Source of the DNA: a plasmid
DNA length: 64,000 nt
Strand: one strand, 5' to 3'
NCBI RefSeq assembly: GCF_058153355.1
Contig: NZ_JBLWLY010000002.1
In this document: in pieces, positions 47,265-59,780 of the stretch
Position numbering within the stretch: the first letter of the stretch is position 1
Layout: each line of letters opens with the position of its first letter
Program-made: the position numbers and the translations under genes
Notes under the pieces: model-generated
The model's database searches: none
Told to the model about the DNA's origin: nothing
The model's input: the letters and a program-made list of their open reading frames with translations, nothing else

Positions 47265-48269
47265 TTAGTGAACAATAAACTCCAAAACTGCATTGCCTAC
47301 AATATGTCCGGGAATTACCTGCCCACCTACTTTTAACTTGCTTGATACTACAAAATCTCTTATCTCATTTCCTTGCATATCAATATCTATATTTGCTTTA
47401 TCATTAATAGCAACTAAACACTCTAAATTAGAACCGCATGGAACTAAAACCCCATCATTTTGGACCTGTCCACCTAATATTTTCAAAGATACTTTGGATG
47501 AATAGTTACAATTGACACGAGCATTTTTGCTTATTTTTCTGTCATGGACAATATCAGCAGAAATGTTACCATAGTCAAGTTCAATGTTTTTGGTACTAAT
47601 ATCACACTTACTATTAACTGTAATGTTTGTGTTAACATTAAAACGACTTCCACTTTCGTTTGCGCGAGCAAACCAGTTTTTGCCTAAAACTCCGGGTGTA
47701 AATTGACTATAAAAATGTTCATACATTCCGATAGTTAAGGGGATTGTTACATTATAAACCCCTGGCCAAGTATTTTTGCGATCTATAGAAAACGGAATTG
47801 TAATATTGGTTACAGGAAGAGGGATCGGACTATTAGACATACTTCCTGCTGGAGAACAAGTAGCTTCTCCTGTAGACATTTTTCGTTCTGATACATATCC
47901 CCCGTAATATCCAAGAGGAATATTACTCTCATCATACATTGTAGGGGAAGCGGTCAACTTCTGAAAAGTAAAGGCTAATCCCTCGGCGGATACCCAGTTT
48001 TTAGGATAAGCCAAATATAAAACGCGGTCTGCCTCAACACCTGATATTTTATCTATTGAACACCAAGAGTCTATTTTCATTGCCGAAAAATTTGTTGGCG
48101 TTGTAATTTTAATTTCTCCTTTATTAGTATCATCTGTAATAACTACAGGAGTTGATGTAAGGGACAGTCCTGCATTTGGTGTCCCCCATAGCATTTCAAT
48201 TCTTTGAGTTCCAATAGCACATTTACTTACTAAAGATAATCCAAGATACGCAACAAATAATTTTCTCAT
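47265..48269 (-). CDS. Fimbrial adhesin-like protein (two-domain tip adhesin candidate)
   Basis: Signal peptide MRKLFVAYLGLSLVSKCAIG, Ser/Thr/Asn-rich beta-type sequence, about 334 aa; start taken at the internal Met. Confidence 0.5.
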   Translation of the reverse strand: MRKLFVAYLGLSLVSKCAIGTQRIEMLWGTPNAGLSLTSTPVVITDDTNKGEIKITTPTNFSAMKIDSWCSIDKISGVEADRVLYLAYPKNWVSAEGLAFTFQKLTASPTMYDESNIPLGYYGGYVSERKMSTGEATCSPAGSMSNSPIPLPVTNITIPFSIDRKNTWPGVYNVTIPLTIGMYEHFYSQFTPGVLGKNWFARANESGSRFNVNTNITVNSKCDISTKNIELDYGNISADIVHDRKISKNARVNCNYSSKVSLKILGGQVQNDGVLVPCGSNLECLVAINDKANIDIDMQGNEIRDFVVSSKLKVGGQVIPGHIVGNAVLEFIVH

Positions 48270-49277
48270 GTTCTGTACTAACGCCTCTTTGTTTACTGTT
48301 TCTGTTTTTCTAAAATCAACGAGTAAATACAATTTTGTATTTGTTTTATTGCAACGTTACTATAAGATTAACCGTTCTGAATTTATACTTCACATTTTTA
48401 CTTAACGACTAATTATACATAATTAGTCGTTACCATCTTGATTTTTAAAAATATATTTCTGCTTTGTTAAAGCTTGTGCTGAAAAACACCAGGCTTCATA
48501 TTTAGTGAGGACAAACAGTTTATTTAAAATTCTTTGTTTTCTCCTAAATCTATTTTCAATAAGATAATTGTGAACCACGGTTTAATATAGTGTTTAGTTG
48601 ATATCAGGTTGTGTCTATAATTAATTTTATTATCTAATGGTTAACTTTATCAAGTTTTATAAGGAAATCTAACCTCATTGAAAGACACAAAACACTATGT
48701 GCTCTTTATACTCGTATAATTCGAGATGAATTATTTCAGCATTCTGATATTGGAACTATAATTGGTGTATTTGTGTTTTTTTATAAAAGCACTTATCCTT
48801 TATATTAACCATTTTTATAAGTGAGAACATATCATGCGATTTTTAGTTAAATATTGATATATTCTGGTATCTTCCACCAGAGAGTATATTTTAATAATAG
48901 TATGATGTTTTATATGCATAAAACATCAAAAACATTAACTTAGTTATTAGTTGCTTATTGGATTTAAGTATTAGAATGACATTCTCCAGATTATATGTAA
49001 TGAACTGAAAAATACAGCATTATGTTACTCTACGGTAGAGGAGACAGAAATCCCTTATTCAAAGGGTGAACCTTAATTGGACTAATTCATAAATTGCATG
49101 TAATGAACATCCGCAAATGCATATAGATCTACGTCTAGCATGGCCATGCCGCCAGTTTATCAGTTTTATATGAACGCATCCTGTTTGCAAGGTTTCCGTT
49201 GTTTTGACTCTGACGGGGAGGTTGCAGCTTTATAGCTGGCTTTTTGCAGCCATAAAGCTGCTAGCCCCTATGTAATT

Positions 49278-50512
49278 TGATCTTACCCACGTAATATGGA
49301 CACCGCCCTAAGCGAGGTTCTGGTTTTCAAATTGTTCAGGACTGAGACCGCCACACCAACTGTGCCGTCGCCAGCGATTGTAATCACATTCGATATAATT
49401 AAATACCGTTGCCCGCATTGTTTCCCGGCTGATAATGTGTTCTCCGTGGATACATTCCACGAAAGAAGCTTTCCACGCAGGCATTATCGTAACAGCAGCC
49501 CTTTGCGCTCATACTGCCACGCAGATTATGCCGCTTCAGCAGCGCCTGATAATCTGCTGAACAGTACTGGCCTCCACGGTCCGTGTGAACAATAACGTTC
49601 CGGGGGCTCTTACGCCGCCACAGCGCCATCCGCAGGGCATCGCAGGCCAGTTGCGCCGTCATGCGTGGTGACATTGACCAGCCAATAACGGCACGTGACC
49701 ACTGCCAGATACAGCCAGCCTTCATCACGTACGTAAGTACGTGATGTCTCCCGCCCACTTCTGGTTCGGACCACTGGCGTAAAAATCCTGCTCCAGCAGA
49801 TTTTCTGACACAGGCAGGCCATGTGCGCGGTAACTGACCGGGCTGAACTTCCGGGAGGCCTTTGCCCTCAGCCCCTGACGGCGCAGGCTTGCCGCCACGG
49901 TTTTTACGTTAAGGTGGTAACCCTGAGCACGCAGTTCATCCGTCAGGCGTGGTGCACCGTAACGCTGTTTTGACCGGGTAAAGGCCGCGAGGACAACGCT
50001 GTCGCAGTGCTGACGGAACTGCTGACGAGGGCTTATCCCTGTCCGCCGCTGACACCACGTATACCAGCCGCTGCGGGCCACCCGGAGCACGCGGCACATT
50101 GCCTTGATGCTGAACTCAGCCTGATGTTTTTCAATAAAGAAATACTTCATTTCAGGCGCTTCGTAAAGTATGTCGCGGCCTTTTGGAGGATAGCCAGTTC
50201 CTCTGCCTGCTCCGCCAGTTGCCGCTTCAGGCGGGCATTTTCAGCGGCCAGTTCACTTTCACGCTCAGACGAGCGTCATCTGTTGCTGCAGTTTGCTGCG
50301 CCACGCATAGAGCTGAGATTCATACAGGCTGAGTTCACGGGCTGCGGCAGCAACACCGATGCGTTCAGCAAGCTTCAGGGCTTCACTGCGAAATTCAGGC
50401 GAATGCTGTTTACGTGTTTTTTTGCTGGTTGATACTGTTTTTGTCATGTGAGTCACCTCTGACTGAGAGTTTACTCACTTAGCCGCGTGTCCACTATTGC
50501 TGGGTAAGATCA
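49278..50512 (-). mobile_element. IS3, full-length but degenerate copy (orfA and orfB frameshifted)
   Basis: Both IS3 termini are present; orfB is split into 141-aa and 119-aa ORFs and orfA is truncated at 63 aa. Confidence 0.8.
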
Positions 50513-50513
50513 A

Positions 50514-50590
50514 CAGACGGCACGAAGGGCTCTTTCCGCTGTGTTATTGTATGTCTCCGCCAGACCGTCATCACTGTAATAACTGATTAT
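50514..50590 (-). mobile_element. IS66-family tnpC remnant (about 75 bp)
   Basis: GACGGCACGAAGGGCTCTTTCCGC..CATCACTGTAATAAC is shared with the fragment at 3880-3960. Confidence 0.45.
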
Positions 50591-58368: not shown

Positions 58369-58384
58369 TAAATCAGGGGCGCAC

Positions 58385-58912
58385 ATGAAAAAAAACACTC
58401 TGGGAATTATGTTATTCACAGTATTATTTATGCCTACTGCGGTACAAGCAATTGATAATCTGAAGTTTAGAGGAAATTTGGTTATACCAAACTGCACCAT
58501 TAATAACGGAAACCCAATTGAAACGGATTTCAGAAATATTGAGATACAAACAATCACGGTTGTAAATACAGGGTATCACTGGAAATTACTACATATTCCG
58601 ATTAATTGCCCTTATGTTATGGGTACGCCAAAAATTAAAATAACAGGAACTCAAGGGGCGGCAGTTAATAGCATTCAAACTAACAAGTACCCTGATGAAA
58701 AACTTGTAATTTATTTAAAACAATCCACTTCTACTGGAAGTAAAGGTAATGATATTAAATTGGGACAGTATCAGATATTGAATTCAAACGCAGTAAACAA
58801 TACAAAAGATAATATATATATCACTGCTGGTATAGGACGGGAGGGAAATTTGTCATTGTTAACACCTGGTCCATTTATTGCGGCAGCTACGCTGGAGGTT
58901 CGTTACGAATAA
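58385..58912 (+). CDS. Fimbrial minor subunit
   Basis: Starts MKKNTLGIMLFTVLFMPTAVQA, ends ..LEVRYE; start taken at the internal Met. Confidence 0.65.
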   Translation: MKKNTLGIMLFTVLFMPTAVQAIDNLKFRGNLVIPNCTINNGNPIETDFRNIEIQTITVVNTGYHWKLLHIPINCPYVMGTPKIKITGTQGAAVNSIQTNKYPDEKLVIYLKQSTSTGSKGNDIKLGQYQILNSNAVNNTKDNIYITAGIGREGNLSLLTPGPFIAAATLEVRYE

Positions 58913-59231
58913 TTAACTATTTAAAATAGATTATTTATTAGAGTAATGGTTATGTTGGGAATTATTTATTTTGAAGTGGCTACTGGCCGAACGGGAATGC
59001 AGAATGAGGGTGAAAAGTGGAGATAATTCAAGAAAAACAGGTGACCTCAGAAAGATGACTATTCCAGTCATCTTACTAAGATAATGGAATAGTGACAGTG
59101 GTAGTTCGACCAGAATCGGTTTGCAGAGATGAAAAGTTATTTTAAAGTACTCTGGTAATCTGGATGGTGTATCCCCTAATCAAGAATGGAAAAATGTGAA
59201 AACAGAGCCCCTTACCAGATAAACAAAAGGA

Positions 59232-59780
59232 GTGAATATAATAATGTTGAAAAGAAGCCAACTCTCAGGTCTGATAGCTGCCGGCCTGTTGTTTACATCA
59301 ATTCAAGTGTTAGCAGTGGATGTACCGATAAAAATCGTAGGGACAATACAAATTCCCCCTTGTCAGGTAAATAACGGGGAAATGATAGAAGTAAATCTCG
59401 GTGATATATCGGTGACCGATGTTGAAAATAAGCGTAACCAGCGAAAGATCAGCGTTCCTGTTACCTGTAGGTATGCGCAGGGCACTGCCTACATAAAAAT
59501 AACAGGAACTCCGTTGGGGAAAAACACAAATGTACTAGTGACGAACGTGGATAATTTTGGTATTGCCCTTTACCAAGGAGATGGGACCATAACAAAACTG
59601 GTCTTGGGTGATGGAAAGTATAACGGGCAGAACTCTATCGGTTATCCAATAGAGACAGGACTCACCGGAAAAGAGAGTGGAACGTTTACATTTACTGCCG
59701 CTCCTTATAAAGAAGAAAATAAAGATCTAACAGCTGTTGCATTCACAGCTTCAGCAAATATGAATATCAGTTATTTCTAA
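59232..59780 (+). CDS. Fimbrial minor or tip subunit
   Basis: 182 aa with signal peptide, ending ..NMNISYF. Confidence 0.65.
   Translation: MNIIMLKRSQLSGLIAAGLLFTSIQVLAVDVPIKIVGTIQIPPCQVNNGEMIEVNLGDISVTDVENKRNQRKISVPVTCRYAQGTAYIKITGTPLGKNTNVLVTNVDNFGIALYQGDGTITKLVLGDGKYNGQNSIGYPIETGLTGKESGTFTFTAAPYKEENKDLTAVAFTASANMNISYF

Follow-up and report, generated by a model that had tools for sequence, protein, structure and literature searches.

A Pap-like fimbrial gene cluster with a divergent PapG-class adhesin on an invasion plasmid of an Escherichia coli/Shigella lineage

We analyzed a 64,000-nucleotide stretch of plasmid DNA (NCBI RefSeq assembly GCF_058153355.1, contig NZ_JBLWLY010000002.1), referred to here as the window, in which positions 47265-59780 hold nine intact genes of a chaperone-usher fimbrial cluster. 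Eight of them (A, H, C, D, J, K, E and F) are read from the plus strand, and the ninth, G, from the minus strand. The nine make up a structurally complete P-pilus-type gene set, carried as 12.6 kb of cargo on an invasion plasmid (pINV) of an Escherichia coli/Shigella lineage, that would be functional if transcribed and is probably expressed conditionally. We give this reading, which is drawn from the sequence of the genes and of their surroundings, a probability of roughly 0.55. Outside the fimbrial segment the window is 97-98% identical to pINVs of Shigella and enteroinvasive E. coli (EIEC), including ospD3, ospC1, ipaH and virF, which bears out the invasion-plasmid backbone proposed in a first-pass annotation.

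A complete set of Pap-type genes

Each gene of the cluster pairs one-to-one with a Pap counterpart, in keeping with the Pap-like gene order noted in the first-pass annotation. The genes are as follows.

52550-53083, plus strand: A, major rod subunit (PapA-like; PapA 7.7e-41)
53159-53731, plus strand: H, PapH-like terminator/anchor subunit (PapH 3e-59)
53852/53876-56380, plus strand: C, outer-membrane usher (PapC-like; PapC 1317 bits, FimD 283 bits)
56432/56477-57208, plus strand: D, periplasmic chaperone (PapD-like; Pfam PapD_N 8.9e-37 and PapD_C 2.6e-13)
57227-57805, plus strand: J, PapJ-like assembly protein (Pfam PapJ 3.2e-44, full length)
57814-58368, plus strand: K, PapK-like adaptor subunit (PapK 6.7e-45)
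58385-58912, plus strand: E, PapE-like fibrillum subunit (PapE 5.3e-14)
59241-59780, plus strand: F, PapF-like adaptor (PapF 1.4e-32)
47265-48269, minus strand: G, PapG-type two-domain tip adhesin of 334 aa (ATG at 48269; the open reading frame extends to a TTG at 48332, 355 aa)

Among solved structures, A, H, C, K, E, F and G are each matched best by the Pap protein that holds the corresponding position. The match of the usher C to PapC spans residues 28-831, and the nearest ushers are annotated as members of the PapC/FimD family, the closest non-identical one being 88% identical to C. The translation of D shows the motifs DRTR and TKIKLFYRP. Over their full lengths, all eight A-F proteins can be aligned with the orthologues of three related operons, without a single frameshift or stop, and all gene coordinates hold; the reading frames are thus as intact as they had looked at first sight among decayed insertion sequences (ISs). 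The cluster is also not a well-known operon with overlooked inactivating mutations, a case that the first-pass annotation had allowed for, but the PapB/PapI region and the linkage of F to G are lost.

E and F are separated by a 328-bp spacer (58913-59240) with a predicted stable hairpin at about 59052-59074 (-12.5 kcal/mol, z -2.3), and the stop codon of F lies 10 bp from an ISSso6 copy. In the related Plf cluster L001 of Escherichia marmotae, a gene at 11553-12893, between E and F, encodes a 446-aa protein with an N-terminal FKBP-type peptidyl-prolyl isomerase domain. By annotation, E. albertii relatives carry the same gene in the same place. In L001, genes of the DsbA and PapI families follow G.

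Intact fimbrial genes among decayed insertion sequences

G sits inverted 4.3 kb upstream of A, and the two are separated, as the first-pass annotation had recognized, by IS3 and IS630 insertions.

49278-50512, minus strand: decayed IS3 copy, with OrfA truncated and OrfB split into three frames
51192-52349, plus strand: IS630-family element, ISSpu2-like (83% identity), CTAG target; the coordinates include the flanking TA duplications

Leftwards from A, the order is a 200-bp leader, the IS630-family element, a fragment of the start of an IS3-family OrfA, an IS66 remnant and the decayed IS3. Compared with intact IS3, the relic reaches 94.3-94.6% identity at best, is 22 bp shorter (1235 bp vs 1257 bp) and carries at least three frame disruptions. 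The transposase gene of the IS630-family element is frameshifted by a 13-bp deletion near 51469, and the element is therefore dead. In about 2.3 kb of IS coding sequence there are thus at least four disruptions, compared with none in 7.55 kb of fimbrial coding sequence, where about 13 would be expected at equal neutral rates. That the fimbrial genes have stayed intact while the IS3 and IS630 copies interspersed with them decayed suggests that all nine genes were under purifying selection after those insertions, at least until recently.

Relationship to known fimbriae and distribution

Judged by sequence and gene content, the cluster is a previously unseen member of the pi (Pap-like) clade, and PL/Plf, Sfp, Pix and Pap are sister families of this new type. 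The cluster has a PapC-lineage usher, a PapD-type chaperone, a PapH-like terminator, a PapJ homologue, the subunits K, E and F, and a two-domain G. The closest families are Plf and Sfp, with ushers 85-88% and chaperones 82-89% identical to those of the cluster, and A is 60-67% identical to PlfA and SfpA over its full length. The homology search that the first-pass annotation had recommended therefore assigns the usher to the PapC type, nearest to Plf and Sfp, and the adhesin to the PapG type, with a best match of 36%.

PL (Plf) fimbriae are encoded by plfBAHCDJKEFG on IncF plasmids of extraintestinal pathogenic and avian pathogenic E. coli (pEC598), while Sfp and Pix are without K and E (bioRxiv 10.1101/2021.07.20.453171). 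The cluster resembles PL/Plf in being plasmid-borne and in the pi clade, in its A-H-C-D-J-K-E-F order with an E-F spacer of a few hundred bp, and in having a hypervariable G. Compared with Plf of strain QT598, C is 85.6%, D 88.5%, A 60.5% and G 19.8% identical, and two other proteins in the PlfG position are 23-27% identical to G; PlfG itself falls into five classes with 44-77% identity between classes, and its locus lies beside RepFIB and an integrase (bioRxiv 10.1101/2021.07.20.453171). Unlike PL/Plf, however, the cluster is without the PlfB regulator, is flanked by ISSso6 rather than by RepFIB and an integrase, has its G detached and inverted, and sits on a pINV. Membership of the PL family is defined by the same gene organisation and a PlfD more than 94% identical to that of QT598 (bioRxiv 10.1101/2021.07.20.453171). 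At 88.5%, the D protein falls below this value, which genuine Plf clusters used as controls exceed (99.2% for L001 and 99.6% for L014), and we therefore do not count the cluster as PL (Plf) in the sense of Habouria et al.

Sfp, encoded by sfpAHCDJFG on pSFO157, the large virulence plasmid of sorbitol-fermenting enterohaemorrhagic E. coli O157:NM, gives the best DNA match, at about 78% over A-H-C, with the usher 85.5% and the chaperone 82% identical. As in the cluster, no adjacent PapB/PapI-family gene is annotated in pSFO157. The cluster differs from Sfp in having K and E, in the identity of A (67%), J (42%), F (42%) and G (31%), and in that the Sfp G directly follows F. An assignment to Sfp was rejected, as near-identity to pSFO157 is absent (about 78% of DNA, over A-H-C only) and K and E are extra. 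The P (Pap) pili of uropathogenic E. coli, encoded by papIBAHCDJKEFG, have a counterpart for each of the nine structural and assembly proteins, and the PapG fold is found in both domains of G; however, the sequences are only distantly related, papI, papB and the papI-papB intergenic switch are missing, and the cluster is on a plasmid rather than on a chromosomal pathogenicity island.

Neither the 72,556 plasmids of PLSDB nor 5,426 complete E. coli genomes yielded a copy of the cluster. The best DNA matches in these searches were Sfp plasmids, at 78%, together with Pap-like clusters from plasmids of E. marmotae, E. albertii and E. coli, at 73-81%. The exact cluster was found in only three other public assemblies (GCA_043012465.1, SRR28786219 and SRR31441161), which together with the window make up two haplotypes. 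The window and SRR31441161 are identical, while GCA_043012465.1 and SRR28786219 differ from them by two single-nucleotide polymorphisms (SNPs) over 9-11 kb plus one unit of an ATTT repeat. The second haplotype keeps the same layout and the same F-ISSso6 and G-ISSso6 junctions.

Full-text searches, made for fimbrial clusters on pINV and for the accessions of the runs and the assembly, located no account of this cluster, and the only precedent to surface was the sfp locus of the E. marmotae plasmid pEM148. That locus has seven genes, is 88% identical to E. coli sfp and lies on a plasmid whose type III secretion system (T3SS) is Shigella-like (Liu et al. 2019, PMC6650469). In both plasmids a Pap-family fimbrial cluster and a Mxi-Spa/Ipa-type invasion system occur together, so the remark in the first-pass annotation that fimbriae are not classically part of the Shigella invasion programme has to be tempered by a Pap-family sfp locus on a Shigella-like T3SS plasmid. 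They differ in that the pEM148 backbone is 45-94% identical to pINV and is without virF, whereas the present backbone is identical to pINV at 97-98% and includes a virF match, and its cluster, with nine genes, is of a different type. What is new is thus a member of the Pap/Plf/Sfp/Pix group with a new class of G adhesin in an unusual location, the sfp locus of pEM148 being a related precedent.

A nearly orphan PapG-class adhesin

The first-pass annotation had proposed a divergent two-domain adhesin about 4 kb upstream, and this proposal is now backed by profile, predicted fold and the operon position of the nearest homologue. The sequence of G is nearly an orphan. Its sole Pfam match is MrpH_C (2e-8, at the C terminus), and of 5.8 billion proteins a single entry is identical to it. 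When 1.84 billion cluster representatives were searched, 37 proteins came back, among them the query's own cluster; with two exceptions they are 317-357 aa long, and the closest non-self homologue is 36% identical. This homologue closes a pap-like operon of metagenome contigs, in which the gene order is A-x-C-D-J-x-x-G. A profile built from the 37 homologues aligns with PapG-II along its entire length (1.3e-27) and with the PapG lectin domain by itself (4.8e-7). The AlphaFold2 model of G (mean predicted local distance difference test score, pLDDT, 90.3) has PapG (6cd2_B) as its best Foldseek match, at 2.4e-20 over the full length, with template-modelling (TM) scores of 0.71 for the lectin domain and 0.81 for the pilin domain. 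From this profile, the modelled fold and the operon position of its nearest homologue, we conclude that G is a PapG-class two-domain adhesin with an essentially new lectin domain. In the structural alignment that domain is only 11-15% identical to PapG, so binding of Gal-alpha-1,4-Gal should not be assumed.

Upstream of G lies the following region.

48270-49160, no strand assigned: AT-rich (25-31% GC) orphan non-coding DNA of 0.9 kb upstream of G

This region has no relative in PLSDB and contains neither a remnant of F nor any likeness to the F-G regions of the related clusters. It includes a 30-nt near-perfect palindrome, ACGACTAATTATACATAATTAGTCGT (48403-48432), about 140 bp upstream of the ATG of G.

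The segment is bracketed by inverted ISSso6 copies

The whole 12,582-bp segment is enclosed by an inverted repeat with arms of 1849 bp, which the first-pass annotation had missed.

45360-47208, minus strand: left arm, ISSso6 plus 297 bp of IS66-like flank (transposase gene 45951-47126; element about 45681-47208)
59791-61639, plus strand: right arm, ISSso6 plus 297 bp of IS66-like flank (transposase gene 59873-61048)

The arms are identical over 1820 bp (left arm, 45389-47208) and differ at two positions only (45378 and 45388), near the outer end, which suggests that two IS66::ISSso6 copies underwent recombination or conversion. Homology with other pINVs extends to 47208-47210, the inner edge of the left ISSso6 arm, and stops there. 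Since pINV homology stops at this edge, and since the junctions are common to both haplotypes, we interpret the segment as cargo that was joined to the pINV via ISSso6. A composite transposon would have its cargo between two copies of one IS, with a target-site duplication on the outside; here there are two inverted ISSso6 copies, and their outer flanks are homologous IS66-like DNA, in which such a duplication is unreadable. IS110-family elements, to which ISSso6 belongs, are not known to move cargo in this manner.

ISSso6 encodes an RNA-guided transposase of the IS110 family, and the left copy has subterminal inverted repeats at 45688-45701 and 47186-47199. Elements of this kind are expected to encode a bridge RNA; an Rfam scan over 45000-62000 returned no family at gathering thresholds, despite the two ISSso6 copies. 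In the S. dysenteriae 204/96 plasmid NZ_CP026809.1 (4031-10012), a 2990-bp unit equivalent to window positions 44220-47208, composed of part of an IS66-family element and ISSso6, occurs in tandem, with a 1528-bp partial ISSso6 copy followed by two full units. The inner end of ISSso6 adjoins different DNA from plasmid to plasmid, for example traI in E. coli NZ_CP065616.1.

An inverted repeat of this size raises the idea of an invertible cassette, in which recombination between the two ISSso6 copies would flip the 12.6-kb segment and switch expression. Arms identical over 1820 of 1849 bp would be ample for RecA-dependent inversion. A flip, however, would leave the immediate flanks of each gene unchanged, as the same IS end lies at both inner junctions, and no promoter is positioned across a junction, all of which makes such a switch very improbable.

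How G came to be separated from F is not reproduced by simple models: starting from the order A-F-G, no single inversion, whether between ISSso6 copies or between IS3 copies, yields the observed G(-)...A-F(+) junctions. A 290-bp end fragment of IS3 occurs twice in the window, at 21620-21908 and 50223-50512, with 99.3% identity. Within the first 25 kb, homology to Shigella pINVs ends exactly at 21908, so the IS3 fragment marks another rearrangement breakpoint.

The control region and the ATTT tract

The native control region of the cluster, comprising PapB/PapI and the upstream intergenic switch, is gone, and IS debris begins 200 bp upstream of A. In the relatives, A is preceded at a distance of 54-245 bp by a gene of the PapB family, and F is followed by G; papI and papB flanking an intergenic switch region upstream of A, the arrangement characteristic of Pap regulation, in which PapI and PapB act with Lrp and Dam in phase variation, are absent here. 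What remains in front of A is the following.

52321-52348, plus strand: (ATTT)7 microsatellite, exact by Tandem Repeats Finder and by direct reading; 201 bp upstream of the start codon of A
52350-52549, plus strand: 200-bp leader between the IS end and A, with a strong Shine-Dalgarno sequence for A

The leader contains a weak, terminator-like hairpin at 52397-52415 followed by five U residues (-7.4 kcal/mol, z -1.96), and its sole promoter-like match is at 52417-52445 (9/12). Also within it (52429-52521) are two tiny open reading frames with strong Shine-Dalgarno sequences, MDESIILL (52429-52455) and MHMNILTCKFW (52486-52521). When the A leader, the G upstream region, the E-F spacer and the region downstream of F were compared with the Plf and Sfp relatives, the alignments were no better than those of shuffled sequences.

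The position of the ATTT tract, about 200 bp upstream of the major subunit gene in the first-pass annotation and 201 bp before the ATG of A as measured here, agrees with that description. What had been overlooked is that the tract lies inside the terminus of the IS630-family element. In ISSpu2-like relatives of this element the right end reads ...GGATCAGTTATTTAG and matches the left end CTAAATAACTG, the pattern of the usual insertion into CTAG with duplication of TA. The copy in the window has the left end CTAAATAAGCG and the right end ...GGATCA(TTTA)7G; in short form, the right terminus is ...CAGTTATTTAG in the relatives vs ...CA(TTTA)7G in the window. On this comparison of IS ends, (ATTT)7 is the right terminal inverted repeat of the dead IS630-family element together with the TA target duplication, and it grew by slippage. 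Its seed, (TTTA)2, would have arisen by a G-to-T change.

The tract has seven units in the window and in SRR31441161, and eight in GCA_043012465.1 and SRR28786219, which answers the call in the first-pass annotation for a comparison of its length across isolates. The same annotation had suggested that the tract could support slipped-strand phase variation of the fimbrial operon. Consistent with such a switch, it lies on the strand of A, 201 bp upstream, and its length differs by one unit between isolates that are otherwise near-identical (2 SNPs in about 11 kb). But the tract is an IS630-family terminal repeat rather than native fimbrial DNA, and it is non-coding. At 28-32 bp, it is too long to fit between -35 and -10 hexamers. 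The only promoter-like match begins 68 bp downstream of it, and the hairpin with its U5 run stands between the tract and A. A phase switch is therefore unlikely, and the change from seven to eight units is most likely neutral microsatellite drift. The case is a caution that a length-variable microsatellite upstream of a gene for a surface structure can be a slipped IS terminus and not a phase switch.

The window was also searched for the VirB-box pattern ATTTCANNNTGAAAT, which gave 7 matches vs 6.1 expected, a number not above chance. An exact palindrome, ATTTCATACTGAAAT, which we take to resemble the VirB box, is present at 2610-2624, with a one-mismatch copy at 50848-50862 between the IS relics upstream of A. 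This copy lies 10 bp from the SNP at 50838 that separates the two haplotypes, and it is not evidence of regulation.

Functional cluster or silent cargo

If both units were transcribed, the transcript of A-F would come from the 200-bp leader and that of G from the AT-rich DNA upstream of it, and the products would assemble into a P-like pilus with a new receptor specificity. PL fimbriae assemble and confer adherence when their G adhesins are swapped (bioRxiv 10.1101/2021.07.20.453171). As these fimbriae accept foreign G adhesins, the assembly machinery appears to tolerate divergent G proteins.

Several points weigh against a functional cluster. Promoter-like matches in the regions concerned are no commoner than in shuffled sequence, and a scan for terminators was likewise without enrichment. 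A tblastn search of the 64-kb window with the PapB-, PapI- and AraC-like proteins and the small accessory proteins of three related operons found none of them (E > 0.07). G is severed from F and no longer shares a transcript with A-F, and AT-rich upstream regions such as those present here would be expected to be silenced by H-NS. The argument from decay rates is weakened if the IS relics were already defective or divergent on arrival. With only two haplotypes known, the intactness of the genes may also reflect recent arrival and not selection in this host. Lastly, synonymous divergence (dS) is saturated against all relatives, so that ratios of non-synonymous to synonymous divergence (dN/dS) of 0.04-0.2 are uninformative about the recent branch.

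Such points would fit a cryptic relic, in which the cluster hitch-hikes as silent cargo that is heading for pseudogenisation and the reading frames are intact only because the rearrangements are recent. This would accord with the general loss of surface adhesins in Shigella and EIEC. The loss of the PapB/PapI region, the detachment of G from F, the IS debris on all sides, the unremarkable number of promoter-like sites and the occurrence of the cluster in only three other public assemblies, with two haplotypes including that of the window, all agree with it. The contrast between the undisrupted fimbrial genes and the repeatedly disrupted IS3 and IS630 copies speaks against a relic, however, as does the precedent of Sfp, which reportedly is expressed although no PapB/PapI-family gene is annotated alongside it in pSFO157. 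We regard a relic as a possible but somewhat doubtful explanation. The reading of the nine genes as a complete set that would work if transcribed is the one we favor.

A bolder version would hold that an EIEC/Shigella lineage acquired and keeps a working P-like pilus of new receptor specificity, expressed from IS-remodelled control regions of the invasion plasmid itself at a level tuned by the hypermutable ATTT tract. We think this improbable; if it were true, it would add a fimbrial attachment step to the virulence programme of pINV.

The usual picture of Shigella and EIEC is of invaders that are poor in fimbriae, and fimbrial operons are not a known feature of pINV. On a true pINV, an intact P-pilus-type machine equipped with an orphan PapG-class adhesin would amount to a lineage-specific colonisation factor, and the cluster may be a determinant of host range or tissue tropism. 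For the family as a whole, G would add a new lectin domain to the adhesin repertoire of Pap, Plf and Sfp fimbriae.

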